A DNA stretch of 64,000 nt from a virus (Duplodnaviria > Heunggongvirae > Uroviricota > Caudoviricetes), in IMG/VR virus record IMGVR_UViG_3300025887_000009. One strand, 5' to 3'. The stretch's first letter is position 1, and the number at the start of each line of letters is the position of its first letter. Below are positions 2-29,222 of this stretch, in pieces. The translations under genes and the position numbers were made by a program. Below the pieces are notes generated by a model. The model saw only the letters and a program-made list of their open reading frames with translations. It ran no database searches and had not been told where the DNA came from.

Positions 2-403
2 CAATTCCAACCGCCGCAGAACTTTGCAGCATACAGACAAAGTGAATTAGATAACGCAAGAATCCCAACATTTACACAAATGATGGCTGTTCCGTTTATT
101 TCAAATAGATTTGCTATGAAACGTTACTTAGGCTTAACAGACGAAGAAGTTGCAGAGAACGAACGTCTTTGGAAAGAAGAAAATGACGACTTGCTTGACG
201 CAATGCCAACAGACACTGATGCAGAAATGCGCGGTGCCGGAGTTACTGGTGCCGGTCTCGAAGGCGATATGGGCGGACTTGATGCAGAACTAGAAGGTGA
301 CGAAACGGGCATGGAAGCAGGAATGGGCGAAGGTCCGACGTCAGCAACTGATCCAGCTCAAGGTACTGGCGCAGCACCAGGCAGCTCTGAAATAAATATT
401 TAA
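2..403 (+). CDS. 20: portal protein, C-terminal fragment (gene starts upstream of window)
   Basis: Open frame from position 2 with no stop until 403. C-terminal 'TQMMAVPFISNRFAMKRYLGLTDEEVAENERLWKEE' aligns with T4 gp20 '[39 protein letters not shown]'. Acidic tail. Confidence 0.7.
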   Translation, partial: QFQPPQNFAAYRQSELDNARIPTFTQMMAVPFISNRFAMKRYLGLTDEEVAENERLWKEENDDLLDAMPTDTDAEMRGAGVTGAGLEGDMGGLDAELEGDETGMEAGMGEGPTSATDPAQGTGAAPGSSEINI

Positions 404-412
404 GGTAAATAC
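392..412 (+). promoter_or_regulatory. T4-late-like promoter motifs (ATAAATAT / TAAATAC) abutting ATG 416
   Basis: aATAAATAtttaaggTAAATACaatATG. Confidence 0.4.
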
Positions 413-415
413 AAT

Positions 416-661
416 ATGCCATTACTACGTGAACTATTTTATTTTGATAAAGAGTCAATGGAAAACACTGACAGCAAGCTTTATAGCCCGAGAGATGACG
501 AATCTCCAATGCAATACGATGATACTCGTAAAACAAAGCTAACTTTACGCGCTATCAACAAGATTCGCAAAGCAAACGAACTACATCAAGAAGAATCTGA
601 AAAAGATTTAGTTTTTGTTCGTCAAATGTACGGAGCGCCACCGGCTGAAGAAGCTATCTAA
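416..661 (+). CDS. hypothetical protein (81 aa)
   Basis: ORF directly after the portal gene. Start is abutted by a TAAATACAATATG late-promoter-like motif. No recognised domain. Confidence 0.4.
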   Translation: MPLLRELFYFDKESMENTDSKLYSPRDDESPMQYDDTRKTKLTLRAINKIRKANELHQEESEKDLVFVRQMYGAPPAEEAI

Positions 662-662
662 C

Positions 663-1379: not shown

Positions 1380-1492
1380 AATACAAAAATGGGCTGTTTT
1401 GGCACCGTTTCCCACCCCTTTATCTAAATCTCTATAAGTATTAGTTGACAGCCTTGCTAAAGGTATTAACCCCATTTACAGGAGATTTAAAA

Positions 1493-2503: not shown

Positions 2504-2515
2504 GGCGATCAATAG

Positions 2516-3148: not shown

Positions 3149-3161
3149 AAGGAGAGAAAAC

Positions 3162-4262: not shown

Positions 4263-4272
4263 GGAGATCATA

Positions 4273-5451
4273 ATGTCAGAACTACTAGAAAGCCGCTGGC
4301 AGGAAACTAAGGGTGCTCTACTTGAAGGTCTACACGGAACTAAAAAATCCGTTATGGCAACAACACTTGAGAACACTCGTAATTATCTTGCAGAAACAGC
4401 AACAGCAGGCGCTACAAGCGCAGGCAACATCGCAACACTTAACCGTGTTATTCTTCCAGTCATCCGTCGTGTAATGCCGACTGTGATTGCAAACGAACTT
4501 GTTGGTGTTCAGCCAATGACAGGTCCTGTGGGTCAGATCCACACGCTACGTGTACGTTATGCGGATTCGTTTAACAGCACAGGCGGTACTGATACTACTG
4601 CTGGCGAAGAGGCACTAAGCCCATTCAAGATTGCAGAAGGTTACTCCGGTAACGCTGCTGATGATAAGGCTGCACCAACTGCGTCTCTAGAAGGCCTAGC
4701 TGGTAACCGTATGAACATCCAGATCCTAAAGCAGACTGTTGAAGCTAAAACTCGTAAGCTATCAGCACGTTGGACTTTTGAATCTGCACAAGATGCTCAG
4801 TCACAGCACGGTATCGACGTAGAAGCAGAAGTAATGGCTGCTCTTGCACAGGAAATCACAGCAGAGATTGACCGTGAAGTACTATCTTCACTTCGTTCGC
4901 TTGCAGGTGCTGCTTCTGAAACATACGACCAAGCTGCGGTATCTGGTACTGCTACATTCGTTGGTGACGAACACGCTGCTCTAGCTGTTCAAATCAACCG
5001 TGTATCAAACATCATCGCTCAGCGTACACGTCGTGGCGCAGGCAACTACGCAGTTGTTAGCCCATTTGCACTTACAATTCTACAGTCAGCAACTACTTCG
5101 GCATTTGCTCGTACTACAGAAGGTTCGTTCGAAGCACCAACAAATACAAAGTTTGCTGGTACACTTAACAACGCAATGCGCGTATATGTTGACACATATG
5201 CATCAGACGCTACAGGTGTTCTTATTGGTTATAAAGGATCAACAGAAAGCGACGCGCCAGCGTTCTACTGCCCATATATCCCACTAATGAGCTCCGGTAC
5301 AGTGCTTGATCCGTCAACATTCGAACCAGTTGTGTCATTTATGACACGTTATGGTTATGTTGAGTTGAACAACACAGCATCATCGCTTGGTAACGCTGCT
5401 GACTATCTTGGTCAGGTTGCTATTACTAACGGTAACGTATCATTCAGCTAA
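4273..5451 (+). CDS. 23: major capsid protein (T4 gp23 family)
   Basis: RBS AAGGAGA. 'VMPTVIANELVGVQPMTGPVGQIHTLRVRY' aligns to T4 gp23 'AIPNLIAFDICGVQPMNSPTGQVFALRAVY'. Followed by a strong terminator. Confidence 0.9.
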   Translation: MSELLESRWQETKGALLEGLHGTKKSVMATTLENTRNYLAETATAGATSAGNIATLNRVILPVIRRVMPTVIANELVGVQPMTGPVGQIHTLRVRYADSFNSTGGTDTTAGEEALSPFKIAEGYSGNAADDKAAPTASLEGLAGNRMNIQILKQTVEAKTRKLSARWTFESAQDAQSQHGIDVEAEVMAALAQEITAEIDREVLSSLRSLAGAASETYDQAAVSGTATFVGDEHAALAVQINRVSNIIAQRTRRGAGNYAVVSPFALTILQSATTSAFARTTEGSFEAPTNTKFAGTLNNAMRVYVDTYASDATGVLIGYKGSTESDAPAFYCPYIPLMSSGTVLDPSTFEPVVSFMTRYGYVELNNTASSLGNAADYLGQVAITNGNVSFS

Positions 5452-5473
5452 TAAGTTGAGAATACAAATACAG

Positions 5474-5858: not shown

Positions 5859-5866
5859 ATAAATAC
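5859..5866 (+). promoter_or_regulatory. late-promoter-like ATAAATAC 1 nt before ATG 5868
   Basis: cATAAATACtATG. Confidence 0.35.
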
Positions 5867-5867
5867 T

Positions 5868-6314
5868 ATGTCTATTAAAAGAACCAGCCAATGTGCTGGA
5901 CTTACAGCGGTTACCCGCCCTGTAGACCTAGAACGTCAAAGGAGAAACAGAATGGGACGTCCAGTTAATAAAAGATATTTCGGTGATCCAGTTGGTGGTA
6001 CTCAGCTTAAAGTAGAAGCTGATACCGGTAACGGTGCAAGTGAAGTAGCATATATCCTTGCTCAAAAAGGAACAAACGAATTTAAAGTTACCGATGGTAC
6101 GACAGCATTAGATTGCCGTCTTGTTGATAAAGCTTTTGCAGCTATTGCAGAAGGTGAAATGGTAATTGCCGGTTCAGTTGCAGGCGGTGTCGGTCGTGCA
6201 ACAATTGCAAAACTATTCAATAGAACAGCAGTTGATTTTAACAGTGTACGTTATACTTGGGAAATCCAAGATGACTCAACTGAAACAGCACTAATCCTGA
6301 CACCAATTGAGTAA
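5868..6314 (+). CDS. hypothetical virion-associated protein
   Basis: ORF with the ATAAATACTATG motif at its start. Alternative RBS-supported start at 5952 (AAGGAGAAACAGAATG). Sits in the structural module. Confidence 0.45.
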   Translation: MSIKRTSQCAGLTAVTRPVDLERQRRNRMGRPVNKRYFGDPVGGTQLKVEADTGNGASEVAYILAQKGTNEFKVTDGTTALDCRLVDKAFAAIAEGEMVIAGSVAGGVGRATIAKLFNRTAVDFNSVRYTWEIQDDSTETALILTPIE

Positions 6315-8155: not shown

Positions 8156-8161
8156 ATTGCG

Positions 8162-8169
8162 ATAAATAT
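8162..8169 (+). promoter_or_regulatory. late-promoter-like ATAAATAT 17 nt before fibre gene ATG
   Basis: gATAAATAtctcgtaaggggtagcatATG. Confidence 0.3.
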
Positions 8170-8186
8170 CTCGTAAGGGGTAGCAT

Positions 8187-9650
8187 ATGGCACAACTAGG
8201 ACGCATAAGTGGACCTATGCTAGATGAAGATTTGTTAAGAAACGGATCTAATTTAGCTTTTAAAAACAACGCAATAGACGCACCTGTATTGTTTATTGAC
8301 GCAGTTAATGGCCGTATAGGCGTTAACACTAGCACGCCTGCTTCTGACTTAGAAGTAATCGGCGGATTAAAATTTACAGATATTACGCTAACTGATCCGG
8401 CAGATTACGGAAACCTTACAATATCTAATGGCTCTATCTCTGTAGTCTCCGGAGATCTTACAATTAGTTCTGCAGGAACAATTACGCTTCCAGGATTGCA
8501 AACAACTGATTATTTGTTTGACGGTAATAGAATAACTGGATTACAGACAGACGCTAACATAGAGATTTTGCCAAATGCCGCAGGTGAAATTGATTTCTAC
8601 GGCAACGTAAATGTAAATGAAAATATGTACGTTGCTGGAACATTATCTCTTACAGGAGACATAGATATAAATGGTAGTGTATCAACATTAGGCGATGCTA
8701 CGTCAGATACTATTGATTTTAATTTAGAATTTCAACAAAACATATTAGTAGCAATAAACGATACTCATTCTTTAGGATCTGTATTATCCGAATGGAAAAA
8801 TTTATTTGCATTTAGATTTCAAACCACTGACATATTAATTCATGATAATATAATCGAAACAACTCTAACCAATTCTAATTTAAATTTACAAACTACTGGT
8901 AGAGTAATTTTTGAAGATGTTACTGCAACTAACAACATAATTTCGTCAGATACTCAACTTGAATTAAATTCAAGTAGTAATATAATTGATTTAGATTCAA
9001 CATCATCTGTAGTAATTTCAAAAGGAACAACAGCAGAATTTGCACCTATTAATGGTGCTATGCGATATAATATAGACAATAACTTATTCGAAGGATACAA
9101 AGGAGAAGTTATTAGATTCAGCGGAATTTATTCCGGAGATACTCAAACTAGTGTACTTGCAGATCTGACACAGGATTTCCTTTCATTAACTACAAATTCA
9201 ATAACAGTTGGCACTATTAATAATAACACAAGTATTTTTAACAGAGTTGATGTTGACGACACTATAATTAATAACAACGAAATTAGTTCAGCTGTAACAA
9301 ACGCAGATTTAGAATTTAAACCTAACGGTAGTGGAGCAGTTTTCTTTGGATCTACTTTTGGATTCTTTGAAGACTCGTGGATAAACAGCACAAATTCTGC
9401 AATTTCTATCGGTGTTACAAACGATGGCAGAGTAAAATTAGCTAGTACATCTGCTGTGTCATTTCCGGCAGGAACAACAGCAGAACGTCATCCTACTCCG
9501 GAAGAAGGTATGGCCCGGTTTAATACTGACTTAGGATATTATGAGCTTCACAACGGTGCAGATTGGTTTCCTATGGTAGGTGTTGTACCACCAGTTACTC
9601 AAGAACGATTTGAGGAAATACGGTTCCTGTGGAGCCTTGTACTTACATAA
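8187..9650 (+). CDS. tail fibre-like protein (paralog A)
   Basis: N-terminus 'MAQLGRISGPML..NG.NLAFKNN..IDAVNGRIGVNT' is shared with the ORF at 9753. Contains three copies of 'GTT.ER(H)P.P..GM.R(Y/F)NTD...E'. Low-complexity N/S/T-rich middle. Confidence 0.6.
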   Translation: MAQLGRISGPMLDEDLLRNGSNLAFKNNAIDAPVLFIDAVNGRIGVNTSTPASDLEVIGGLKFTDITLTDPADYGNLTISNGSISVVSGDLTISSAGTITLPGLQTTDYLFDGNRITGLQTDANIEILPNAAGEIDFYGNVNVNENMYVAGTLSLTGDIDINGSVSTLGDATSDTIDFNLEFQQNILVAINDTHSLGSVLSEWKNLFAFRFQTTDILIHDNIIETTLTNSNLNLQTTGRVIFEDVTATNNIISSDTQLELNSSSNIIDLDSTSSVVISKGTTAEFAPINGAMRYNIDNNLFEGYKGEVIRFSGIYSGDTQTSVLADLTQDFLSLTTNSITVGTINNNTSIFNRVDVDDTIINNNEISSAVTNADLEFKPNGSGAVFFGSTFGFFEDSWINSTNSAISIGVTNDGRVKLASTSAVSFPAGTTAERHPTPEEGMARFNTDLGYYELHNGADWFPMVGVVPPVTQERFEEIRFLWSLVLT

Positions 9651-15032: not shown

Positions 15033-15062
15033 TCTTGGTATGGAACTTCTCCTGTTACTTTA

Positions 15063-15070
15063 TATTTATA
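15063..15070 (-). promoter_or_regulatory. T4 late promoter consensus TATAAATA on minus strand
   Basis: rc of plus tatttata. Lies 28 nt upstream of the TTG start of the ORF at 13884..15032. Confidence 0.45.
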
Positions 15071-15073: not shown

Positions 15074-15081
15074 ATAAATAC
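15074..15081 (+). promoter_or_regulatory. late-promoter-like ATAAATAC, 18 nt before ATG 15100
   Basis: aATAAATACtagtggagacaacacaaaATG. Paired with a divergent motif on the minus strand. Confidence 0.4.
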
Positions 15082-15099
15082 TAGTGGAGACAACACAAA

Positions 15100-15868: not shown

Positions 15869-15897
15869 TTGACAACTTAAAGCTTTTCTTATATAAT
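15869..15897 (+). promoter_or_regulatory. sigma70-type early promoter, perfect TTGACA-N17-TATAAT
   Basis: TTGACA 15869-15874, 17-nt spacer, TATAAT 15892-15897. Extended -35 TTGACAACTT. Confidence 0.6.
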
Positions 15898-15905
15898 ACG
15901 TTTAT

Positions 15906-16415
15906 ATGGAGAAGCTTTTGAAACCTAAATTATTAATTATCGGTCATGGACGCCACGGAAAAGATACAGTATGTGAAATACTGCGCGACGACTATGGCTT
16001 TAATTTTCAAAGCAGTAGTAAATTTTGTTCAGAGAAATTCATTTACGATAAGCTAAAAGACAGATACAACTATTCTTCTGAGGAAGAGTGTTACAATGAT
16101 CGTCACAATCATAGAGAAGAATGGTATAATTTAATCTGCGAATACAATGTGCCTGATCCTTCACGACTTGGTAGAGAAATCTTTAAAGAATACGACATTT
16201 ATTGCGGACTAAGGAATGCAGCAGAATATTATGCTATGATTGATAATCATGTTTTTGATTGTGCAGTTTGGGTAGACCGATCGCAACACCTGCCGCAAGA
16301 ATCACAAGACAGCATGACAATGGACGAAGAAATGGCAGACTATGTTATTGACAACAACGGCACTCTTGAAGAACTAAAAGAGAATGTAGAAAAGTTTTTA
16401 AAAGTCGGGGCGTAA
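15906..16415 (+). CDS. dNMP kinase-like P-loop protein
   Basis: Preceded by a perfect sigma70 promoter. 'LLIIGHGRHGKDT' and C-terminal 'DNNGTLEELKENVEKFL' resemble T4 gp1 'LIFLSGVKRSGKDT' and 'TNDGSLEELFSKIKNTL'. Confidence 0.5.
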   Translation: MEKLLKPKLLIIGHGRHGKDTVCEILRDDYGFNFQSSSKFCSEKFIYDKLKDRYNYSSEEECYNDRHNHREEWYNLICEYNVPDPSRLGREIFKEYDIYCGLRNAAEYYAMIDNHVFDCAVWVDRSQHLPQESQDSMTMDEEMADYVIDNNGTLEELKENVEKFLKVGA

Positions 16416-16736
16416 ATCTCCCTGCTTCCAGACTACGCCTTCTTTCTGTATAATGCGTTGACAGTTTGCACATACGGTTTTTAAATTTGGTACACGACAA
16501 TCGTCTAAATTTCCATTAATATGAAAAACATTAAATTGCTCAGAGTGCTTACTAGAGAAGCCGCATTTCTCGCATAAGCTTTTCTTAACATAACCAGCTT
16601 GTCTCCATTTAGGTATGCCGTGGGCATATCCTCCATGTTTTAAACAAATCTCACACTTTTTACGATAAAATACTTTCTTATCTTTTTTATAATTGATAGC
16701 TGCGGGGCGTAAACCGCATACGCATAATGGTCTCAT
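16398..16736 (-). CDS. HNH endonuclease (free-standing, homing-type)
   Basis: Cys-rich 112-aa ORF with an HNH-like 'FHINGNLDDCRVPNLKTVCANCQ' motif. It converges on and overlaps the kinase gene by 18 nt. Confidence 0.55.
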   Translation of the reverse strand: MRPLCVCGLRPAAINYKKDKKVFYRKKCEICLKHGGYAHGIPKWRQAGYVKKSLCEKCGFSSKHSEQFNVFHINGNLDDCRVPNLKTVCANCQRIIQKEGVVWKQGDLRPDF

Positions 16737-16905
16737 GTGTGTATTTATTTTTCCACACCTTTAGTGCCCCTTTTCGCCGTGATCAAAGCGGGGTTTTCCG
16801 CTCCCTTGTACTAAATACAAATGACGACGAATGTATATAAGTTATTTAACACAAATAGTTATAGCTGTACATAATTCGAATTGAGATTTAAAGGGAGACT
16901 CACTA

Positions 16906-19900
16906 ATGGCATTAGTATCACCAGGTGTAGAAGTTAGCGTAATCGACGAAAGTTTTTACACACCGGCAGAACCAGGAACTGTTCCACTTATTTTTGTTGC
17001 AACAGCATCAAATAAGGCAAACCCAAGCGGTACCGGAACAGCGCCAGGTACACTGGCAGCAAACGCAGGACGTCCATACTTGCTTACATCACAGCGTGAT
17101 CTAGCAGAAACTTTTGGAGACCCATCGTTTAAAACCGACAGCAATAACAATCCAATTCACGCAGGTGAATTAAACGAATACGGATTACAAGCAGCTTATT
17201 CATTGCTTGGTGTTTCTAATAGAGCATATGTTGTTCGTGCAGATGTTGATTTATCTGAACTTGAAGCATCTGCAACAGCGCCAGCAGGATCACCTGCAGA
17301 TGGCACATACTGGTTTGACACACAAAATACTAAGTTTGGTATTTTCGAATGGAACGGTAATCCGCAAACAACAACAGGCGGTCAAAGCTTTACTGTTAAA
17401 GAAGTTACTGTAATTACAGATGCAACTAAGGTCGATAGCTTTGGTGCACCAAAAACATCGGTTGGTGCAATTGGTGATTACGTGCTGCTTGCAACAACTA
17501 CACTTAACAAATTGTATTTCAAGAATACAGCAGGTACATGGGTAGAAGTTGGCGCGAGCGATTGGGCAGCAAGCTGGCCAACAGTACGCGGAACAGTAAG
17601 TAATCCGACGCTTTTAACAGGCGAGACAATTATTATTAACGGCACAACTGTTACACTTGCAGGAACGTTGCTTTCGAATCTAGCAAATGATATCAACGAT
17701 GCAGGAATTGCAGGAGTTACTGCGGCAGCAGTTGATGGTAGCATTGAGATTTATTCAACTGGTGTAGATGTTATTGTATCAGAAGGTTCTAATGAATTAA
17801 TGGCAGATGTTGGTTTAACAGCAGGTACGTTCTACGCGCCATCAGTTACAATCAGTCGTCACACGCAAGTACCTGAGTATAAACTTAACGATACTAATCC
17901 GCGCCCAACAGGTTCAATTTGGTCAAAGACTACAGAACCAAATGCTGGAGCACGTTGGAGAGTTAAAGTTTACAATGCAGACACACAATTGTTTGAAGAT
18001 GTCGAAGCACCACTTTACTCAAGTGGCAGTGCTGCAATTTATGCACTTGACGCAGCAGGCGGCGGCTTAAATCTTCCAGTCGGAACACTTTATGCAAAGT
18101 ATAATGACTCGGAAGAAAATCCGGTGTTTACAAACTATAAACTATATCGTCGTAGAGCAGCTGGTCCAACTAGCATCCGCTCAGGGGTTATATCCACTGG
18201 CATTTCAGCAGGTGCATTTAGCTTCGATATCCAAGAAGGTATTTTAACAAGTGGCGAACTAGCGGCTGCTATTACAGTTAGCGGAACAGCAACAGGTGCT
18301 TCGTCGGATGCAGATGTTATTGCTGGAGCAATTAACTCTGCAGGCTTTGTTAATATTACTGCAACAGTTGACGCACAGAACAGAGTTACAATCAGTCACA
18401 AACTAGGCGGCGACTTCCGTTTGGTGGATAGCGGTACTGTTTTAACAGAGATGGGCTATACAGCTTACGTAGACGCTAACAGCGGTACAACAAACCTGTA
18501 TGCAGCACCAGCTGGCGATTCAACAAACACACTAGTAGCAACAAACTGGCAAGTACTTTCGTATACAGCTTCAGAATCTGCACCAACTGCATTAACAGTA
18601 GACGGACGTCTATGGTATTCATCAGTTGTTGACGATGTCGATGTTATGGTTCATAACGGAACAACATGGGTTGGTTACCAAGATTCAACTAGCCCATTTT
18701 ATTCTGTAACCGAAGACGAAAAAACAGACCCAGCAGGTCCTATTGTTTCTGCAACCGAGCCGACTCTACAAAGCGACGGTACTGCACTAAAGAATGGCGA
18801 TTTGTGGATTGACACAGCAGATATCGAAAACTATCCAACTATCTACAAGTACAATGATGTACTTGCTGATTGGGAACTAGTTGACAAGTCTGATCAAACA
18901 ACCGAAGACGGTATCTTGTTTGCAGATGCTCGTTATAACACCTCGGGTGCTAACAGCAATACAGCAGGCGAAATTGTTGATCTATTAGCAAGCAACTTTG
19001 TTGACTTTGATGCTCCAGATCCAGCACTATACCCAAAAGGTATGCTACTTTGGAACCTACGTCGTTCAGGCTTTAACGTAAAGCGTTTTGCACGTAACTA
19101 CGTTAACACAAGTTCTGATAACATACGCTTTAGTGACGAATCAATGAGTGGTTATTATGCTAATCGTTGGGTAACTGAATCAGCAAACGAAGCAGACGGT
19201 TCGGGTGCATTTGGACGTAAGGCACAACGTAAGGTTGTGGTACAAGCGCTCCAAGCAACAGTAAACAGCAACCAAGAGATCCGCGACGACGAATCAAGAA
19301 TCTTTAACCTAATGGCAACACCGGGTTATCCAGAATTGATCGGTGAGATGATCTCACTTAACTTTGATAGAGGCCTAACAGCATTTATCGTAGCAGACTC
19401 GCCAGCAAGACTCACACCAGATGCAACATCGCTTAACGAATGGGGAACAAACGTTGCTCAAGCAGTTGAAGACAACGATGATGGATTGGTATCAAGAGAC
19501 GAGTATATGGGTGTTTACTATCCATGGGGCTTTACAAGTGACAACTTTGGTAACAACGTAGTTGTACCCCCAAGCCACATGATGCTACGTACAATTGCAC
19601 TAAGCGATCAGGTTAGCTATCCATGGTTTGCACCAGCTGGTACACGACGCGGCGGAATTACTAATGCAACGTCAACAGGCTATGTAACAAGCGAAGGCGA
19701 ATTTAACGCAATTGCTCTTAACGAAGGACAAAGAGATACATTGTACTCAGTAGATGTTAACCCAATTACATTTATTACTGGTGCAGGACTTGTAGCATTT
19801 GGACAAAAGACAAGAGCAAGAAGCGCAAGTTCGTTGGACAGAATCAACGTTGTTCGTCTTGTAGTATATCTGCGCTCGCAGCTTAAGAGACTTTCAAAGC

Positions 19901-20154
19901 CATACTTATTCGAACCTAACGATAAGATCACAAGGGACGAAATTAAGCAGGCAGCAGAAAGCTTGTGCTTAGAACTTGTAGGTTTACGCGCACTATATGA
20001 CTATCTAGTTGTATGTGACGAGTCAAACAACACACCATCGAGAATTGATAGAAATGAGCTGTATCTGGACATTGCTATCGAGCCAGTCAAGGCAGTTGAA
20101 TTTATCTATATCCCACTAAGGTTGAAAAACACTGGTGAGATTTCAGGGCTTTGA
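16906..20154 (+). CDS. 18: tail sheath protein (1082 aa, extended)
   Basis: N-terminus 'MALVSPGVEVSVIDESFY...' follows the conserved sheath start (T4 gp18 'MTLLSPGIELKET'). RBS AAAGGGAGA. Confidence 0.8.
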   Translation: MALVSPGVEVSVIDESFYTPAEPGTVPLIFVATASNKANPSGTGTAPGTLAANAGRPYLLTSQRDLAETFGDPSFKTDSNNNPIHAGELNEYGLQAAYSLLGVSNRAYVVRADVDLSELEASATAPAGSPADGTYWFDTQNTKFGIFEWNGNPQTTTGGQSFTVKEVTVITDATKVDSFGAPKTSVGAIGDYVLLATTTLNKLYFKNTAGTWVEVGASDWAASWPTVRGTVSNPTLLTGETIIINGTTVTLAGTLLSNLANDINDAGIAGVTAAAVDGSIEIYSTGVDVIVSEGSNELMADVGLTAGTFYAPSVTISRHTQVPEYKLNDTNPRPTGSIWSKTTEPNAGARWRVKVYNADTQLFEDVEAPLYSSGSAAIYALDAAGGGLNLPVGTLYAKYNDSEENPVFTNYKLYRRRAAGPTSIRSGVISTGISAGAFSFDIQEGILTSGELAAAITVSGTATGASSDADVIAGAINSAGFVNITATVDAQNRVTISHKLGGDFRLVDSGTVLTEMGYTAYVDANSGTTNLYAAPAGDSTNTLVATNWQVLSYTASESAPTALTVDGRLWYSSVVDDVDVMVHNGTTWVGYQDSTSPFYSVTEDEKTDPAGPIVSATEPTLQSDGTALKNGDLWIDTADIENYPTIYKYNDVLADWELVDKSDQTTEDGILFADARYNTSGANSNTAGEIVDLLASNFVDFDAPDPALYPKGMLLWNLRRSGFNVKRFARNYVNTSSDNIRFSDESMSGYYANRWVTESANEADGSGAFGRKAQRKVVVQALQATVNSNQEIRDDESRIFNLMATPGYPELIGEMISLNFDRGLTAFIVADSPARLTPDATSLNEWGTNVAQAVEDNDDGLVSRDEYMGVYYPWGFTSDNFGNNVVVPPSHMMLRTIALSDQVSYPWFAPAGTRRGGITNATSTGYVTSEGEFNAIALNEGQRDTLYSVDVNPITFITGAGLVAFGQKTRARSASSLDRINVVRLVVYLRSQLKRLSKPYLFEPNDKITRDEIKQAAESLCLELVGLRALYDYLVVCDESNNTPSRIDRNELYLDIAIEPVKAVEFIYIPLRLKNTGEISGL

Positions 20155-20189
20155 TAGGCATAAATAGTAGCAACAAGGAGAGAATTTAA

Positions 20190-20822
20190 ATGGCAATCTC
20201 AACACTATCAAAAATTACTGTTCCACTAGCGAGCGACCAATCCGCGGTCGCTCAGGGACAGCTAATGCCAAAGCTACAGTATCGCTTTCGAGTGATACTG
20301 GAGAACTTTGGAGTAAGTACGCCAAGAACAGAACTTACTAAGCAAGTTATGGACGTAACCCGTCCTAACTTAACTTTCGAAGAGATCACAATTGACGTGT
20401 ATAACTCACGTTCGTATCTTGCAGGAAAACACACTTGGGATCCAATCACGCTTAACTTGCGCGATGACGTAGGTGGCAACGTGCAGAAACTCGTAGGCGA
20501 GCAAAACCAGAAGCAGTTCGATTTCTTCGAACAAGCATCAGCAGCATCTGGTATTGACTATAAGTTTACAACACGCATTGAGATCCTAGACGGTGGTAAC
20601 GGAGCGTTTGACGCAACTGTACTTGAAACATTTGAACTATATGGTTGTTTTGTACAAAACACCAACTGGAACTCATTAGCTTACAACAGCAATGAACCAG
20701 CAACTGTTACACTTGCAATTCGTTACGACAACGCAATCCAGTCACCACAAGGATCTGGCATTGGTACAAATGTTGGACGTACAACAAATACACTTATTAC
20801 AGGTGGCGGCGGCGCTATCTAA
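20190..20822 (+). CDS. tail tube protein (putative)
   Basis: 210-aa ORF immediately after the sheath gene with RBS AAGGAGAGA. Followed by a strong terminator. Confidence 0.55.
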   Translation: MAISTLSKITVPLASDQSAVAQGQLMPKLQYRFRVILENFGVSTPRTELTKQVMDVTRPNLTFEEITIDVYNSRSYLAGKHTWDPITLNLRDDVGGNVQKLVGEQNQKQFDFFEQASAASGIDYKFTTRIEILDGGNGAFDATVLETFELYGCFVQNTNWNSLAYNSNEPATVTLAIRYDNAIQSPQGSGIGTNVGRTTNTLITGGGGAI

Positions 20823-20841
20823 TAATAGTTACAAGCAAAAT

Positions 20842-20870
20842 AAAAGGGGCCATGTGCCCCTTTTATTATG
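20842..20870 (+). terminator. rho-independent terminator after tail tube gene
   Basis: AAAAGGGGC-CATGT-GCCCCTTTT, then ATTATG...TTTTT. Confidence 0.75.
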
Positions 20871-20884: not shown

Positions 20885-20892
20885 TATAAATA
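20885..20892 (+). promoter_or_regulatory. T4 late promoter consensus TATAAATA, 4 nt before ATG 20897
   Basis: gaTATAAATAcaatATG, just after the tube-gene terminator. Confidence 0.5.
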
Positions 20893-20896
20893 CAAT

Positions 20897-22039
20897 ATGT
20901 CAAATTTTTTAAATGGATTCTTAGATAACTTATTAAACGGGGCATTATCTCCGCGAGGCGATTTATCTGACTACAAACACGCTTCGTATCTATACAACCA
21001 GAACTCGTTTGCTTTAGCACCGAGACATAAATTTCTTTATCACGTTGTATTTGAACCATCAGCTGAGGCATTAAATTATATGCCTCAATTAAGTAACAGA
21101 AATAGAGAAGAAATCAACATGCTAGTTAAGTCTGTTGACTTGCCTCAATTTAATGCAGAGATTGAAACAAAGAATCAATACAATCGTAAAAAGAATGTAC
21201 AAACAGCTATTTCTTATGATCCTGTTCAAATAGTATTTCATGATGACAATGTAGGCATTACTACATCATTGCTAGAAGCATATTATCGTTATTATTACGA
21301 AGACGGAAACTTACTTGGTAATGCATCTGCATATGATCCAAGGTCCACGTACAAGTCATCACAGTTAGCAAAGATTAACTACGGTATGACTAACAAAGCG
21401 CAAGTGCCATTTTTTAGAAGAATTACCGTATTCCAATTAGCTAGACAAAGATTTACAGGATTTACATTAGTTAATCCGATTATTACAAATTGGGGCCACG
21501 ACTCATTAGATAACGCAGATAGTCAACCAACAGCAAACACTATACGAGTAGCATACGAAGCTGTGCACTATACTCGAGGAAATGCAGGCGAAGATAGTCC
21601 TGCTGGTTTTGCTAAATCGCACTACGACAAACAACCAAGTTCGATTAGATCAACAACAAGTGATTTTGGAAACGGTGGCGTGCTCGGTACTGTAGGTGAT
21701 ATTCTAACCGACGTTACAACAGGAAACACTGGTCTAAGTACAGTTCTTAAAGGAATTGATTTGTTTAGAAATTCAAAAACATTAACTTCTGACAGATTAC
21801 GAACAGACGGTGTAAGAATACTTGAAAACTTTGCATCAACTGCAATACGTTCTGCTCCGTTGTTTATTAATTCTAATACATCAACTAATTCGTTAAGCGG
21901 AATAGCAAACACATCGTTTCCTAAAAGTGCAGGACCTGGTGCAAGAGCGAGTCAAACGACTAGCCAAGGCGGATCAGTTGATACTGCTAGCTCGTCGTAT
22001 GCTGCAAGAATAGCCCAAGCAAGAGAGAACAATAGATAA
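20897..22039 (+). CDS. hypothetical late protein (380 aa)
   Basis: ORF starts right after a TATAAATACAATATG motif. S/T/N-rich C-terminus. Confidence 0.5.
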   Translation: MSNFLNGFLDNLLNGALSPRGDLSDYKHASYLYNQNSFALAPRHKFLYHVVFEPSAEALNYMPQLSNRNREEINMLVKSVDLPQFNAEIETKNQYNRKKNVQTAISYDPVQIVFHDDNVGITTSLLEAYYRYYYEDGNLLGNASAYDPRSTYKSSQLAKINYGMTNKAQVPFFRRITVFQLARQRFTGFTLVNPIITNWGHDSLDNADSQPTANTIRVAYEAVHYTRGNAGEDSPAGFAKSHYDKQPSSIRSTTSDFGNGGVLGTVGDILTDVTTGNTGLSTVLKGIDLFRNSKTLTSDRLRTDGVRILENFASTAIRSAPLFINSNTSTNSLSGIANTSFPKSAGPGARASQTTSQGGSVDTASSSYAARIAQARENNR

Positions 22040-22838: not shown

Positions 22839-22863
22839 CTAAATACACTTGGAGAAATAGCGT

Positions 22864-23016
22864 ATGTTTAAATGCAAAAATTGCGAGCGAGATTGTCATT
22901 GCGGCAGTCCGTTGTTTGAAGAAGCACGTAACTGGCGGGAAGAACGCCTAGGCGAACGAAAAGTTTGTAACGAATGCGACTGCAAAAACTGCAACAAAGA
23001 GGCATCCGAATTATGA
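22864..23016 (+). CDS. small Cys-rich zinc-ribbon protein (50 aa; below ORF-track cut-off)
   Basis: ATG at 22864 with GGAG 8 nt upstream. 'CKNCERDCHCG...CNECDCKNCN'. Stop overlaps the next ATG (ATGA). Confidence 0.4.
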   Translation: MFKCKNCERDCHCGSPLFEEARNWREERLGERKVCNECDCKNCNKEASEL

Positions 23017-23531
23017 CACGTAAATTAGAAGAACTTTTAAACCTTCCTGATTCAAAAGATGTAGTCGACGAAGAGCTCAAAAAGAAACAAGCAGAAGCGC
23101 TTGCTGAAAAGAAACGTAAGAAAAGTAAAGCATCAAAAGCGTTAACAACTTATGAGCAGCTTGATAAGATTACTTCGGCACTGCCGAGAGTTAAAGGACT
23201 TAATAACAAAGGCGATGAAGAAATCGACGACATTGCAGAACGTGCGTTAAAGTCATATGAAGACCTAATGGATCTTGGTATGAATGTAGAACAGCGCTAT
23301 GCAGGTAGAATATTTGAAGTAGCAGGATCAATGCTTAAAACAAGTCTAGATGCAAAGACAGCAAAGCTAGACAAAAAATTAAAGATGGTCGATTTGCAAC
23401 TTAAGAAAGAAAAGCAAGACAATGACTTGCGAGCTAAAGAAACCAACAACGGAGTAGTTAACGGCGACGGTGTAGTTATTACAGATCGTAACAGCTTACT
23501 AGCCAGCATTAAAGGCAACGCTGCTAAATAG
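23013..23531 (+). CDS. hypothetical coiled-coil protein
   Basis: Translationally coupled to the small Cys-rich ORF. K/E-rich. ORF track's alternative start is 22974. Confidence 0.45.
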   Translation: MTRKLEELLNLPDSKDVVDEELKKKQAEALAEKKRKKSKASKALTTYEQLDKITSALPRVKGLNNKGDEEIDDIAERALKSYEDLMDLGMNVEQRYAGRIFEVAGSMLKTSLDAKTAKLDKKLKMVDLQLKKEKQDNDLRAKETNNGVVNGDGVVITDRNSLLASIKGNAAK

Positions 23532-23547
23532 CTATAAGGGGATTACA

Positions 23548-24120
23548 ATGAAGAAGTTTTTAGAATATATAGTCGAAAGTGAAAAGAAATATGAATTTAA
23601 GATTCGTATTGCTGGTCACGACATACCGACTGACAGAGTAAGCAAGTTAGAAACAGCATTGCAAAAGTACGAGTTAGTGTCATTTGCATCTGGCAGGAAA
23701 ACACCAATACAAGAAAATCCGTTACACTTTCCGCAAATTCAAAATTGCGAAGTAATGACATATGATGCTGTATTAAAATACCCTGCAACAGCAACAATCT
23801 TGCAAAAGTATCTAGCTGATACAATTGGATTAGCAGAGACACATGTTCTTGTAACATCTGCAACTGAGCCTTTTGAAGAGCTTGCAAATCCAGCAGCTAA
23901 AAGCGACACATACGAGCCGATCCTTTCTAAAACAGAAATGGAAGATGCTGACCCCGATGCACAAAGCAAAGTAGGCTCAAACAGAGTAATGGACTTGCTT
24001 AAAGAACTAGAGCAAGCAAGAGCAGAACGCACTACAGGTAATCCAACAGAAGGAACTCCAGTAGGCGACAGCACAGATATATCCCCAATAGTAAACACCG
24101 ATTCGGTAGTAGGAGGTTAA
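23548..24120 (+). CDS. hypothetical protein (190 aa)
   Basis: ORF with RBS AAGGGGATTACAATG. Confidence 0.45.
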   Translation: MKKFLEYIVESEKKYEFKIRIAGHDIPTDRVSKLETALQKYELVSFASGRKTPIQENPLHFPQIQNCEVMTYDAVLKYPATATILQKYLADTIGLAETHVLVTSATEPFEELANPAAKSDTYEPILSKTEMEDADPDAQSKVGSNRVMDLLKELEQARAERTTGNPTEGTPVGDSTDISPIVNTDSVVGG

Positions 24121-24121
24121 C

Positions 24122-24955
24122 ATGGATAACCAAAAAGACATTTTTAAAGCTTTAATTCAAGCAGTAAAATCAAACGACGTAGACACTAAGCCAGCAAAGC
24201 AACTAAACGAAGCGGCAGCAGCAAATATCAGTCTTACAGGCGACAGCGCGGCAGAAGTAGAACAACTAATGCGTATGTTCAAAAATGCAGGAATGCCAGA
24301 TGCAGCGCCGGCGCCGATGTCTATTCAATCAGGCGAAGAAGAATCATGTGGGTCAGGCAGTGAAGAAGATCCTGAATCAATATCGATAGCAATGGGCGAC
24401 ATGGAAGACGAGCACGAAAATGGCGAATATGACAGCCAGTCTAACGAAGAATATGAAAATGAGCCAAATGACGAGTACCAAGACAACGAGTATATGCAAC
24501 ATGATTTAGCTGGCGGTATTAACAAGCCGAAGAAAATGTATGCAAAAGCACAAGATGGTGACAACGCAATGGCAGTTGAAACTATTAAGCAGTCTCTTTT
24601 GAAAGCACTTAGTGAAAAGATGCAAGATGACAAAGTCGCCGAAGCAAGCAAACCGTCATGGGAAAAAGAAGGCAGCTGGTCAAAGAATATAAAGAAGAAG
24701 CAAGACGAATATCTTCCTAAGAGTTCAAAGAAGCCAGTTGCTAAAGAAAAGAATACAACTGAAGCTTCAAAAGAAACGAAGTTTTCAGGCTATTCAAAAG
24801 GCAATAATAAAAAAGGGCATCCAGACCAAGGCAAGCTTGTTGGAGAGAGCAAAGAAGTTAACGATATTGTTAAACTTGCCCTAACAGAAGTAAACGCACC
24901 TTCTGCAAACAAAACACAACATGCACTGGACCTTAAGAAACTAGCAGGTATCTAA
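24122..24955 (+). CDS. acidic hypothetical protein, C-terminal ...DLKKLAGI (scaffold-like tail motif)
   Basis: RBS GGAGG. Acidic middle. The C-terminus matches the scaffold C-terminus ...DLRRLAGLK. Confidence 0.5.
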   Translation: MDNQKDIFKALIQAVKSNDVDTKPAKQLNEAAAANISLTGDSAAEVEQLMRMFKNAGMPDAAPAPMSIQSGEEESCGSGSEEDPESISIAMGDMEDEHENGEYDSQSNEEYENEPNDEYQDNEYMQHDLAGGINKPKKMYAKAQDGDNAMAVETIKQSLLKALSEKMQDDKVAEASKPSWEKEGSWSKNIKKKQDEYLPKSSKKPVAKEKNTTEASKETKFSGYSKGNNKKGHPDQGKLVGESKEVNDIVKLALTEVNAPSANKTQHALDLKKLAGI

Positions 24956-26539
24956 ATGTCAAAGTCGTTAGACGGCGTACTGATTAAAAAAGCCAATCAG
25001 AAGGAATCATACACTGAAAAAGAAGTTGGAGAACTTATAAAGTGTATGGATCCTGATGATGGCTATTTGTATTTTTCTAGAAATTTCGCATATATTCAAC
25101 ACCCTGTAAAAGGTAAGTTGTTATTTGCTCCATATGAATATCAGCTAGGATTAATGGACAGTTATCACAGCTTTAGATTTAATATTAATATGATGCCTAG
25201 ACAAACGGGTAAAACTACTTGTGCTGCTATCTATCTTGCATGGTATGCAATGTTTAATCCAGACCAAACTATTCTAATTGCTGCTCACAAATACACAGGT
25301 GCGCAGGAAATTATGTCACGTATACGATTTGTATACGAAAGTTGCCCTGATCATATTAGAGCCGGGGTTACAAGCTATAACAAAGGTTCTATTGAATTTG
25401 AAAATGGATCACGTATTGTAAGCCAAACAACAACAGGCAACACAGGACGTGGTATGTCTATTTCGTTATTATATTGTGACGAATTTGCATTTGTGCAACC
25501 TAACATTGCTGAAGAATTTTGGACTTCAATTTCACCTACACTAGCAACAGGTGGACGTGCAATTCTTACAAGCACGCCTAACTCAGATGAAGATACATTT
25601 GCTACTATATGGAAAGGTGCAGAACAAAAGTTTGACGAGCACGGCAACGAGAGCGACGTAGGAGTCAACGGGTTTCACTCGTTTATATCAACATGGGACG
25701 AACATCCAGATAGAGACGAAGCGTGGAAAGCTACCGAAGTTGGAAGAATTGGTGAAGAGAAATTCCGTCGTGAATACGGCTGTGAATTCCTTGTATTTGA
25801 TGAGACTCTTATTCACGCAATTAAGCTTGCTGAAATGGAAGGCATATCTCCTATACTTAATATGGGACAAACACGCTGGTATAAGAAGCCAAAGAAACAA
25901 TATTCTTATGTTGTAGCACTCGACCCTAGTATGGGAACCGGTGGCAACAATGCAGCTATACAAATTATCGAAGTTCCTACTTACATACAAGTAGGAGAAT
26001 GGATGCACAACGACACAGGCATACCTGGGCAGATACGAGTACTAAAAGACATCTGCACGTACATTGCAGATAGATGTAAAAATAATGGAGAAAATGTATA
26101 CTGGTCTGTTGAAAATAACGGACTTGGAGAAGCAGCTCTAATTGTAATTGATGATTTTGGAGAAGAAACTATTCCCGGAATGTTCCTCTCAGAGCCTGCA
26201 CGAAAAGGGCACGTTCGTAAATTCCGTAAAGGTTTTAACACGACTCACGGGCATAAGATCTCGTCGTGTTCTAAGTTAAAAACGATGGTAGAAAATAATA
26301 AATTTACCATTAATTCAAAGCCACTTATTTCTGAATTAAAAAACTTTGTAGCAACTGGATCTTCGTATCAAGCTAAGTCGGGACAAACAGACGACTTGGT
26401 TTCTGCAATCTTGTTAACCTTACGAATGCTAACAGTAATGAAAGACTGGGATGCAAAGATTTATAACACCTTCACACAACTTGACGAGGATGAGAAATAC
26501 GACGTTGCTCCGATGCCAATGTTTATCAGTATAACTTAA
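24956..26539 (+). CDS. 17: terminase large subunit
   Basis: Walker A 'MPRQTGKTT'. Classic T4 gp17-like ATPase N-domain and nuclease C-domain layout. Confidence 0.9.
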   Translation: MSKSLDGVLIKKANQKESYTEKEVGELIKCMDPDDGYLYFSRNFAYIQHPVKGKLLFAPYEYQLGLMDSYHSFRFNINMMPRQTGKTTCAAIYLAWYAMFNPDQTILIAAHKYTGAQEIMSRIRFVYESCPDHIRAGVTSYNKGSIEFENGSRIVSQTTTGNTGRGMSISLLYCDEFAFVQPNIAEEFWTSISPTLATGGRAILTSTPNSDEDTFATIWKGAEQKFDEHGNESDVGVNGFHSFISTWDEHPDRDEAWKATEVGRIGEEKFRREYGCEFLVFDETLIHAIKLAEMEGISPILNMGQTRWYKKPKKQYSYVVALDPSMGTGGNNAAIQIIEVPTYIQVGEWMHNDTGIPGQIRVLKDICTYIADRCKNNGENVYWSVENNGLGEAALIVIDDFGEETIPGMFLSEPARKGHVRKFRKGFNTTHGHKISSCSKLKTMVENNKFTINSKPLISELKNFVATGSSYQAKSGQTDDLVSAILLTLRMLTVMKDWDAKIYNTFTQLDEDEKYDVAPMPMFISIT

Positions 26540-26546
26540 TAAATAC
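26539..26546 (+). promoter_or_regulatory. late-promoter-like ATAAATAC, 3 nt before ATG 26550
   Basis: taATAAATACaatATG. Same 13-mer as at 416 and 20897. Confidence 0.4.
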
Positions 26547-26549
26547 AAT

Positions 26550-29222
26550 ATGAAAGATTTAAGCACAATAGGTGAAGAACTATTTAACAAGATTCGCGGA
26601 CGATTCCCGTCAGTTACCATCGGTGACGAAAACGGCAAAGTAACCAACGTTCCAGAAGAGGCAAGATTTTTTGATTTTGCATATTCAAAAATGGATCCAA
26701 ACAACAAAGTATCTGTTAGCATAGATGAAGACAGTGGCTTGGTTGTGATGTACAACAGTGATTTAATTGCACTCGAAGGCAGCAACAGAAAAAGCGACTG
26801 GTACGGATTCTTACGTGAGTTACGTCGATTTGCTCGCAAGCGGTTACTTAGTTTTGACACTAGAGATATTGAGCGCAACAATTTAAAGAAAAGAGATTAC
26901 AAGTATCTCGCTAAACCTCCAAAGGACGAATCAATGAACGAATCAAAGATGTACGGCACTGCAAGAATAAGCTACCAGGATGTAGGAAACGCAAGATTAA
27001 TGGTGCGTCATACTAAGCCGGTAAACACAGAATTACCAACAGGTAGAACGATGCATATTGAAGGCATTTACATTGAGAGTTCAGAAGGTGAAAGATTTAA
27101 ATATCCATTTAAGCACATGTCAGGTGCTCGTGCAATGGCTCGTCACGTATCCGAAGGCGGTAATGCGTATGATGAGTTTGGCGGGCACATTACGGGACTA
27201 TCAGAAGAACTAGCAAAACTACGCAAGTTTAAATCGTACATGGGTCGTTCAAGTGTTATGGCAGAAGGTTTGTCGGGATACATGGACGTTGTTAACGAAC
27301 GAGTAAGCGAAGTAAAATCACGCATTGATAAACTACAGCGCGAAAGCTATTACAAAGAAGCTTTTGAAGGTTTTGAAAAGCCTATGTTTGAAGATGTTCC
27401 AGAAGACGTAAAGCAAGACTGGATTGCACAACTTACAATTAAACAGTTTAACGAAGAATTGCAAGATGTATTTCCTTACATCTACAAGCTTATCGGAGAA
27501 GCCGGACCACGCGAGCTTACAGCTGATGAGATGGTGTCCGAAGATGATCCGTGCTGGAAAGATCACAAGCAAGTTGGAATGAAAGAAAAAAGCGGCAAAA
27601 AAGTGCCAAATTGTGTTCCGGAAGAAGAAGAACTAGAACGCGGAATTGAAGAAATGATGGGACAATTTGCAGAACATCAAATATCCGAAAAGAAAGATTA
27701 CAACTTTACAGCAGATGACATTCAAAAACTACAACGCATCAAAGATTTGAAGCAAGCACAAGAATTTGCATTTAAATTAGTTTCTGCAGATTCAGCTAAG
27801 CCTATGCAAAAGCAAAAAGTTAACTGGTTTAAGCAAAATATTGCTTCAAAGAAATCAGTAATGGATCTTGTAAAAATGATGTACGACCTTCTACTAAGTG
27901 GAGAAGGTAAAGGTGTAATTGGATCAGGTAGCAGCATGAGCAAAAACAGCTATCGCAGAACATTTGATTCTGTTGAAGAAGCCGGCGGCGTTGGTAACCT
28001 TTATCTTAAATTTAGAACACAAATGACTCCGGGTTCGAGCGCAGAAGGTTCTGTTCCTTACCTTGTAGGTTTTGCAGGTTTTGAACAAGATCCTAAAGAT
28101 CTAAAAATGAAAACAGCAACCCGAAAGTTTCTTAACTTAAACACTCAAAAAGATATTCAGAACGCTGTTAAGAAATTGATGAACGACAAGGTGTTTGTAA
28201 ACGCTGGGAAGATTATATTATATAGAGAAGACAGTGTAGTCGGGCAACACCCGCAACTGCGTGACTTCTTTAAGTGGATGAAATCATACAGCGGCGAAGC
28301 AGTCGGAGTAGAACGTGCGCCGGATAGAGACAAGATTGAAAAAGATCCTAATGGACCTCTTAAAAAGAGAGCAAAGAAAGGCTCGTTTGCATCAGGAGAC
28401 AGAGAAGTAACTGCACCTGATAAGAAGATGACTAGATACCTTACTATTGATAATGCTCGACTTCTTGACATGTTTAAAAAGCAATATCCAGACTTTATGA
28501 GAAAGTATTACAAGCCTGCTCAGAGGACGTTTGTTATGCCTGATAAGGTCTACAGACAATTTGCAAACACAGTAACGAAGCCGGCAATAGTACAAAGCTA
28601 TGGTCCAACTAAGATAACAGTTGATCAAGAGAAGAGTTTTGCAGAAGAGCCACAAATGAAAGCAGCAAAGCCGGATCAGATACCATTAGGTGAATTTATC
28701 CTTAGCTATTTTGATAAAGAAACTGGGCGATTCCCTAAGGGCGAAACAGCAGTGCTTACGTCAATTGAGAAAGACTATGGTGAAAGCTTTATTGATCCTG
28801 CAAAGAAGTTTATTGAACAGATCCACGGTAAGTTCGCAGAGCATACTAAGCGTCCAGAAATAAATGATGTAGAGCAACTAGGCGACAGTGAAATTGGCGA
28901 GAGAGCCGGCGAAAAAAGTGGTGAATTTGACAGCTATATAGACGATGACGACGGCACAGAAGTAACTGTACATTGGGAAGCAGACGAAGATATGTACGGA
29001 AATTCCGACATCACATTTTATGCAGTTGATGCAGCAGGAAACGAAGTAGATTATTCTCCAAGAGATGAAGCTCGTTGGAAAGAAGAACTCGGCGATCAAA
29101 TGAGCAGCTACGACGACGAACGCGGCGATCATATGTATCAACAGCAAAAAGACAACGGCTTTGAATCATCTGGGTACCGTGAAGAAATGGCTGGTATTGC
29201 AAAGTTAGCAGGTTTAAAGTAA
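26550..29222 (+). CDS. large hypothetical protein (890 aa), C-terminal ...IAKLAGLK
   Basis: Long uninterrupted ORF with an AATAAATACAATATG start. No polymerase or portal motifs seen. The C-terminus shares the LAGLK tail with the scaffold protein. Confidence 0.55.
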   Translation: MKDLSTIGEELFNKIRGRFPSVTIGDENGKVTNVPEEARFFDFAYSKMDPNNKVSVSIDEDSGLVVMYNSDLIALEGSNRKSDWYGFLRELRRFARKRLLSFDTRDIERNNLKKRDYKYLAKPPKDESMNESKMYGTARISYQDVGNARLMVRHTKPVNTELPTGRTMHIEGIYIESSEGERFKYPFKHMSGARAMARHVSEGGNAYDEFGGHITGLSEELAKLRKFKSYMGRSSVMAEGLSGYMDVVNERVSEVKSRIDKLQRESYYKEAFEGFEKPMFEDVPEDVKQDWIAQLTIKQFNEELQDVFPYIYKLIGEAGPRELTADEMVSEDDPCWKDHKQVGMKEKSGKKVPNCVPEEEELERGIEEMMGQFAEHQISEKKDYNFTADDIQKLQRIKDLKQAQEFAFKLVSADSAKPMQKQKVNWFKQNIASKKSVMDLVKMMYDLLLSGEGKGVIGSGSSMSKNSYRRTFDSVEEAGGVGNLYLKFRTQMTPGSSAEGSVPYLVGFAGFEQDPKDLKMKTATRKFLNLNTQKDIQNAVKKLMNDKVFVNAGKIILYREDSVVGQHPQLRDFFKWMKSYSGEAVGVERAPDRDKIEKDPNGPLKKRAKKGSFASGDREVTAPDKKMTRYLTIDNARLLDMFKKQYPDFMRKYYKPAQRTFVMPDKVYRQFANTVTKPAIVQSYGPTKITVDQEKSFAEEPQMKAAKPDQIPLGEFILSYFDKETGRFPKGETAVLTSIEKDYGESFIDPAKKFIEQIHGKFAEHTKRPEINDVEQLGDSEIGERAGEKSGEFDSYIDDDDGTEVTVHWEADEDMYGNSDITFYAVDAAGNEVDYSPRDEARWKEELGDQMSSYDDERGDHMYQQQKDNGFESSGYREEMAGIAKLAGLK

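Follow-up and report, generated by a model that had tools for sequence, protein, structure and literature searches.

Can a late promoter of the T4 type lie so close to a start codon that the message begins at the AUG itself? T4-type late transcription is a textbook system, and its late genes carry leaders with a Shine-Dalgarno (SD) sequence. The question is raised by IMG/VR virus record IMGVR_UViG_3300025887_000009, a stretch of 64,000 nucleotides (nt), hereafter the window, in which the motif (g/t)ATAAATA stands immediately before the ATG of several late genes. Judged by its sequence, the window comes from an uncultured jumbo myovirus in a distant T4-like group, whose genome has a size of 275 kb or more. 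Our analysis suggests that a T4-type late promoter is fused to the ATG at a subset of late genes, and that the mRNAs of these genes probably begin at or near the AUG and are leaderless.

Motif placement in the window and its relatives

TAAATA was found in two arrangements in the window, 17-30 nt before the ATG of genes with an SD and 4-5 nt before the ATG of genes without one. We call the second arrangement fused, and write N4, N5 and so on for the number of nucleotides between the motif and the ATG. The fused genes (lengths in amino acids, aa), a terminator hairpin beside one of them and a candidate open reading frame (ORF) that is probably a further fused gene are as follows.

406-418, plus strand: TAAATA (406-411), a 4-nt spacer and ATG 416, the start of an 81-aa gene after the portal gene (416-661)
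20885-20899, plus strand: TATAAATA, CAAT and ATG 20897, the start of a 380-aa tail-tube paralogue (20897-22039); no SD
20839-20867, no strand assigned: 12-bp GC-rich terminator hairpin flanked by A/T runs, 18 nt before the promoter of the tube paralogue; an equivalent is present in relatives
26539-26552, plus strand: ATAAATA, CAAT and ATG 26550, the start of an 890-aa virion structural gene (26550-29222); no SD; adjoins the TerL stop codon (26537-26539)
43568-43583, plus strand: TATAAATA, TACTC and ATG 43581, the start of a 260-aa virion structural gene (43581-44363); no SD
16734-16752, minus strand: ATAAATA, CACAC and ATG 16736, the start of a 112-aa gene (16736..16398); no SD
55089-55104, plus strand: candidate, TATAAATA, TGCAT and ATG 55102, a 78-aa ORF extending to 55338 within a minus-strand early block

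A portal assignment for the product of gene 26550 was rejected, as PHROGs identified a virion structural protein and the portal C-terminus lies at 80-403.

The initial annotation had reported a 13-mer, TAAATACAATATG, at the starts of ORFs 416, 20897 and 26550. This was borne out, in that exactly three copies are present (at 406, 20887 and 26540), each with the ATG of an ORF as its last three bases, and 100 dinucleotide shuffles yielded no copy. The fused genes at 43581 and 16736 (minus strand), and probably 55102, had been missed. An SD-like 4-mer at -18 to -4 was absent from six of seven fused genes and present in 47 of 66 other genes in the window. The earlier statement that the cited genes lack an SD holds for 20897 and 26550, whereas gene 416 has a weak AAGG and gene 5952, described below, has a strong SD.

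The three copies of the 13-mer, with none expected, argue against chance and against an ordinary host sigma70 -10 box, which might be suspected because the 13-mer contains TACAAT. A weak ATGACT-17-TACAAT (9/12 matches) ends at 20896, and the bare 8-mers occur at chance level (ATAAATAC 5 times with 4.0 expected; TATAAATA 6 times with 5.5 expected). However, relatives keep TAAATA and its spacing but not TACAAT, the spacer of the tube paralogue being variously caat, ctat, cttt, catt, cagt and ttagt across the window and its relatives, and TACAAT was rejected as a -10 box on this ground. Furthermore, with a -10 box that ends at the ATG, transcription would begin about 7 nt into the gene. We regard chance or a sigma70 box as an extremely improbable explanation.

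The TAAATA core is depleted throughout the window on both strands (44 copies, compared with 75 ± 8.5 expected from dinucleotide shuffles), a pattern that would fit selection against stray late promoters. Of the 44 copies, about 17 are on the coding strand no more than 45 nt ahead of a gene start, nearly always that of a virion gene, and several directly follow terminator hairpins. All eight matches to TAAATA-N2-5-ATG are at the heads of ORFs, and TAAATAC-N1-4-ATG is present 6 times with 1.2 expected, a value that none of 300 shuffles reached. As the motif is depleted elsewhere on both strands yet concentrated upstream of late genes, it behaves as a DNA-level signal.

A megablast search with 14 kb of the window against 50,697 phage records gave no nucleotide-level relatives, and the matches were distant only. 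The family itself comprises hundreds of IMG/VR contigs of up to 275 kb, with about 63% identity in the sheath and 73-79% in TerL. The 275-kb contig is IMGVR_UViG_3300021959_006010, and IMGVR_UViG_3300007276_000748 is 100% identical to the window over gene 416. Over all loci we obtained 92 distinct fused contexts (N5 in 55, N4 in 27, N6 in 3 and N7 in 6), across which the (g/t)ATAAATA consensus is invariant. It is the sole conserved promoter element; the 30 nt preceding the motif contained no conserved -35-like column in either the N4 or the N5 set. In the window and a first set of relatives the spacing is bimodal, with 15 N4, 8 N5 and 6 N7 sites, none at N8-14, and a resumption at N15 and above. 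The N8-14 gap fits a promoter, since the resulting leader of 3-9 nt would be too long for recognition of a 5'-AUG and too short for an SD.

The arrangement was followed gene by gene. Gene 416 is fused in all 27 distinct orthologous contexts (25 N5 and 2 N4) with a spacer that varies, and gene 43581 in 31 of 38 (20 N5, 8 N4, 2 N6 and 1 N8), its distant orthologues being leadered at N21-25. The tube paralogue has the terminator hairpin, gATAAATA, an N4 or N5 spacer and the ATG in all relatives, at 40-46% aa identity, and its N-terminus, MSNFL, is common to CBB_207. In orthologues of 26550 the motif overlaps the TerL stop codon (tTGATAAATA) at a spacing of N4 (relative L006) or N7, and L002 has its counterpart of gene 16736 fused at N4, the product likewise beginning MRPLC. 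Orthologues of 416 (M(I/L)LRELFYFD), 20897, 26550, 43581 and 16736 keep their N-terminal peptides from residue 1-5 onwards, which indicates that the fused ATGs are the true starts. Codon-position entropy over the first 12 codons was weakly informative.

The TerL gene of relatives has its own terminator and a fused late promoter. In the window this promoter is gone, and a 277-aa gene (24122-24955) that is almost without homologues in relatives abuts TerL through a TAAATG overlap; this gene is probably an insertion. The same gene can thus switch between fused and leadered forms among relatives, as seen for gene 15041 (see below), distant orthologues of gene 43581 and the TerL gene of the window.

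T4 TATAAATA spans -13 to -6, and its T-13 is loose in other T4-like phages (PMC1524935). In CBB and GAP32, which have a gp55-like sigma factor, an ATAAATA motif before structural genes has been put forward as the late promoter (PMC5259590). In the family studied here the motif precedes virion and packaging genes, namely those for sheath, both tube proteins, the adaptor and virion proteins, and TerL in relatives. We infer that (g/t)ATAAATA is the late promoter of this family, equivalent to T4 TATAAATA.

TAAATA might instead act in the RNA, as an A/U-rich element that loads ribosomes or enhances initiation independently of an SD (e.g. through S1), with the real promoters further upstream. A/U-rich unstructured leaders can support initiation, and the fused genes are indeed without an SD. 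However, the motif also stands at a fixed offset upstream of strong SDs, where an enhancer would be superfluous, and its depletion on both strands and the empty N8-14 gap are expected of a promoter rather than an enhancer. A second conserved element upstream of the fused motif was not found, the tube and TerL contexts leave merely 20-30 nt or so between terminator and motif, and the motif matches the late promoter of T4 and CBB. An RNA element is therefore a very unlikely explanation.

Predicted 5' ends and translation of the fused genes

With the motif at -13 to -6 as in T4, the modal N5 spacing makes the A of the ATG position +1. RNA polymerase start sites favour a pyrimidine at -1 and a purine at +1, and the base before the fused ATG fits this preference. 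Among the 55 N5 sites 54 have a pyrimidine there, and among the 27 N4 sites 24 have a T, compared with a pyrimidine at 26 of the 66 non-fused genes of the window. The conserved 5' untranslated region (UTR) of gene 5952 provides an independent marker of the offset; in 20 relatives it opens with GTC, 4-5 nt after TAAATA. Leaderless initiation requires a 5'-terminal AUG. Fused genes start with ATG (48) and never with GTG or TTG, whereas SD-led genes start with ATG (142), TTG (20) or GTG (7), such that 27 of 169 (~16%) use GTG or TTG. An SD was never nearer than about 5 nt to the motif.

The most likely explanation for these results, which we consider probable, is that a gp55-type late sigma factor reads (g/t)ATAAATA as a lone -10-like element and that transcription starts 5-6 nt past its final A. 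The promoter would lie 4-5 nt (rarely 6-7) before the ATG at the gene after the portal, the tube paralogue and the 890-aa, 260-aa and 112-aa genes, as well as at TerL in relatives, so that the mRNA would begin with a 5'-AUG or within 1-2 nt of one. Such an SD-less message would be translated through recognition of the 5'-terminal AUG by the 70S ribosome and initiator tRNA. At the genes for the major capsid protein (MCP), the scaffold-like protein, sheath, canonical tube and adaptor, the same promoter would be followed by a short leader, often with the SD right at the predicted 5' end.

Several points weigh against leaderless late messages. A tblastn search with the gp55-like protein CBB_244 against the window and 1.46 Mb of relatives' loci gave no match, no sigma-factor or gp33/gp45-type family was present among 50 window proteins scanned with PHROGs, and Pfam detected no sigma domain in 10 window proteins without an assignment, the window covering 64 kb of the 275 kb or more of the genome. 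A gp55 scan of viral contigs returned matches from Rak2-like phages only. The spacing of all three 13-mers in the window is N4, for which the T4 rule is off by one base, implying either initiation one base nearer to the motif or loss of the first base of the codon, and the N7 sites imply a leader of 1-3 nt. Gene 416 carries the AAGG (402-405, 10 nt upstream) and a second TAAATA (393-398, 17 nt upstream). In addition, the counts over relatives are phylogenetically non-independent, and competence of the host for leaderless translation is an assumption. Finally, at genes 416 and 26550 the stop codon of the upstream gene lies 8-13 nt before the ATG, such that termination-reinitiation could translate both.

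The last point belongs to an alternative in which RNA synthesis at the fused copies begins within the ATG or past it, so that only genes further downstream are served. The fused genes themselves would be expressed from polycistronic read-through mRNA, through termination-reinitiation or internal initiation independent of an SD. Strict T4 geometry at N4 would indeed place +1 on the U of the AUG, the stop codon in relatives is often inside the motif, and at 5859 and 16812 an ATG 2-3 nt past the motif is clearly a non-functional start. However, the modal N5 spacing has +1 exactly on the A, and reinitiation needs neither a pyrimidine at -1 nor an exclusive ATG. The tube paralogue and the TerL gene of relatives follow a terminator hairpin without an adjacent upstream ORF, and genes 43581 and 16736 head divergent intergenic regions. 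Sigma70-type promoters fused to start codons by the same design also speak against read-through translation, which we consider unlikely. Two such fusions, both missed by the initial annotation, were found in the window.

45046-45083, plus strand: TTGACA-17-TATAAT-6-ATG 45081, DNA primase gene (45081-46064); no SD
15869-15908, plus strand: TTGACA-17-TATAAT-8-ATG 15906, dNMP-kinase-like gene (15906-16415); no SD

With the -10 hexamer at -12 to -7, the N6 spacing puts +1 on the A of the primase ATG. The 15906 fusion recurs in relatives as TTGACA-17-(-10 hexamer)-5/6-ATG, and nine other promoters of the TTGACA-17-TATAAT type lie 21-47 nt upstream of SD-bearing starts. By this geometry the two non-late genes, for primase and the dNMP-kinase-like protein, also look leaderless, and the likeness of the sigma70-type fusions to the late ones suggests that the host is proficient in leaderless translation.

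Leadered late genes and the leader of gene 5952

The remaining putative late promoters of the window would be followed by leaders. The strong ribosome-binding sites that the initial annotation had noted at neighbouring late genes are present, AAGGAG at the MCP gene (4273) and AAAGGAGAG at the scaffold-like gene (3162). Leadered promoters were also predicted at the following positions.

8163-8189, plus strand: TAAATA, SD AAGGGG from the 7th nt, ATG 8187
15075-15102, plus strand: TAAATA-ctagt-GGAG...ATG 15100, head-tail adaptor gene; SD at the predicted 5' end
20161-20192, plus strand: promoter of the canonical tail tube gene (20190-20822); SD AAGGAGAG
22840-22866, plus strand: TAAATA-N5-GGAG...ATG 22864
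23525-23550, plus strand: TAAATA-N5-AAGGGG...ATG 23548, virion protein gene
33481-33516, plus strand: possible leadered promoter, TAAATA 30 nt before ATG 33514; weak SD TAGGAA
16812-16908, plus strand: sheath promoter with a leader of ~85 nt; sheath start 16906 behind AAAGGGAG
5859-5954, plus strand: ATAAATAC promoter (5859-5866), predicted 5' end at G 5870, structured leader of ~80 nt, SD at 5939-5945 and ATG 5952 (gene 5952-6314)
15030-15070, minus strand: TATAAATA (15070..15063), GGAG 7 nt before an ATA at 15041..15039, and TTG 15032 three codons on

The SD of a leadered late gene is often found to start 5-6 nt past TAAATA, where the 5' end of the message is predicted, and the predicted leaders at 15075-15102, 22840-22866, 23525-23550 and 8163-8189 are merely ~10-14 nt long. 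In relatives cTAAATA lies 30-37 nt before the sheath ATG, which has an AGGAG SD. ATG 16821, which follows TAAATA and CAA in the sheath leader of the window, was rejected as a gene start, as it opens only a 17-codon ORF.

Two of the sites put forward by the initial annotation belong to this leadered group. ATAAATAC at 5859, followed by T and ATG 5868, is present as described. However, ATG 5868 was rejected as a leaderless start; orthologues begin MGRP(V/L/I)NKRYF behind AAGGAGAAA, corresponding to ATG 5952 of the window behind its strong SD, and in L052 a stop codon closes the frame upstream of the 5952-type start. The strict TATAAATA on the minus strand upstream of TTG 15032 is likewise present (15063-15070), but in the window it would direct a leadered, SD-bearing message. 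The virion gene concerned (13884-15041, minus strand) has ATA at 15041..15039 where orthologues have ATG (MPRLSLYRPE); TTG 15032 is the next canonical start, 16 nt from the SD. Either the ATA serves as a non-canonical AUA start, or it stems from a recent mutation or an error in sequencing. In L023 and L033 the orthologue is fused, as TAAATA-N5-ATG with MPRLSLYRPE. The proposal that the promoter places the 5' end at or next to the ATG thus has strong comparative and geometric support at 416, 20897 and 26550 but fails at 5868 and 15032, and comparison and geometry support the wider suggestion that leadered and leaderless late messages occur side by side.

The 5' UTR of gene 5952 (120 aa, just after the MCP gene) is a conserved structured element, located at 5870-5951 and also present in L049-L082. 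Three hairpins are predicted, P1 (5884-5899), P2 (5905-5922) and P3 (5925-5937). The sequence of P1 varies with pairing always kept. P2 pairs UAUGCGG with CCGCGUA and has the variants GGGG/CCCC and CUG/CAG, while P3 has a CUAGAAC loop on stems of GAC/GUC, UAC/GUA or CGG/CCG. Rfam gave no match for this leader, which is possibly a translational operator or a stability element.

Genome context, known systems and implications

PHROGs assigned a virion block containing the portal C-terminus (80-403), a protease, the scaffold-like protein (3162), MCP (4273-5451), sheath (16906-20154), the canonical tail tube (20190-20822), the 380-aa tube paralogue (20897-22039), TerL (24956-26539) and the 890-aa virion protein (26550-29222), with replication genes for SSB, UvsX/Y, helicases and primase downstream. 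The sheath is 43% identical to that of Agrobacterium phage Atu_ph07, 40% to that of PA5oct and ~35% to those of CBB and GAP32. No tRNA genes were found in the window, and no Rfam family matched it at the gathering threshold. A peptide deformylase and a Nol-like carbamoyltransferase are encoded at 42153-42653 and 46183-47154. Both are typical among marine phages, and the substrate of the deformylase is the formyl-Met end of nascent proteins.

Family contigs binned into metagenome-assembled genomes (MAGs), namely the GTDB genome contigs L244-L273 with members of 335 kb (PBPT01000016.1) and 183 kb, appear under Crocinitomicaceae, Neomarinimicrobiota, Rickettsiales, Gammaproteobacteria, Haliscomenobacter, Legionellales, Polynucleobacter and other labels. 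As these labels are taxonomically scattered, the contigs are evidently mis-binned phage genomes, and the MAG bins gave no host assignment.

Eight ORFs of 93-184 aa, at 59588-62325 (minus strand) and 44415-45036 (plus strand), all start with ATGCGT. A sequence of ~25 nt, aaaaaacaatgttgaggttgcagtATGCGT, precedes seven of the eight, namely five of six tandem minus-strand ORFs (59588-61985) and 44755-45036, and neighbours overlap by 8 nt. The set resembles an early gene family present in multiple copies. At 63536-63600, close to where the window ends, a C-rich segment is followed by a long T-rich tract, ccccgacccccctctttttttattttttatttttttattt.

The putative late promoters resemble those of T4, which gp55 recognizes together with gp33 and the gp45 clamp, in their core, the lack of a -35 element, their location at virion genes and the implied distance from motif to start. 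They differ in placement, as the motif in the T4 late region lies 12-46 nt before the ATG of SD-bearing genes and none is fused; one nearer copy, 9 nt before gene 6, is inside the preceding gene and is probably no promoter. CBB and GAP32, Rak2-like jumbo phages of the same broad clade, have the same 7-mer before structural genes, and CBB encodes the gp55-like sigma factor (PMC5259590). In contrast to the window family, CBB, PA5oct, Atu_ph07, RaK2 and Munch have orthologous genes with SD leaders, the motif being 20-50 nt upstream or absent; the PA5oct paper describes sigma70-like promoters only. As neither T4 nor these five jumbo phages have the fusion, it is specific to the environmental family.

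Known leaderless mRNAs, such as lambda cI transcribed from PRM and those of mycobacteria and Thermus, share with the fused genes the lack of an SD, the obligatory AUG and, as predicted here, a +1 on the A of that AUG. What differs is the setting, here a T4-type late promoter at abundant virion genes of a large environmental jumbo-phage family. The late promoters of poxviruses, with their TAAATG initiator, are alike in having an A/T-rich late core with TAAAT beside the ATG. There, however, TAAAT and the ATG overlap and slippage adds a poly(A) head, whereas the window family has a variable 4-5-nt spacer between motif and ATG; the polymerase and host domain are unrelated. The likeness of poxvirus TAAAT to T4 TATAAATA has previously been remarked (PMC2674943). 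In the searchable literature no paper tied T4-type late promoters to leaderless mRNA, and searches on leaderless late mRNAs in T4-like, jumbo and cyano-phages gave reference-list matches only. Each of the two components is well known; what appears to be new is their predicted fusion at major virion genes, conserved family-wide.

A stronger form of this proposal is a dedicated late leaderless-translation regime, in which clamp-coupled gp55-type transcription would yield 5'-AUG mRNAs for selected abundant virion proteins that pass straight to 70S ribosomes. We advance it with considerable doubt. If true, the regime would bypass competition for the anti-SD, possibly aided by phage-modified ribosomes or initiation factors, and the promoter-ATG unit would be a selected expression module rather than a by-product of host biology.

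SD-expecting gene callers would mis-start or miss the fused genes and, conversely, call false starts such as 5868, and the TAAATA-N4/5-ATG rule offers a simple annotation aid for late genes and their starts in these metagenomic phages. A further implication of the pattern is a host in which leaderless mRNA is efficiently translated. Overall, a widespread environmental branch of the T4 superfamily appears to join gp55-type promoters with leaderless translation.

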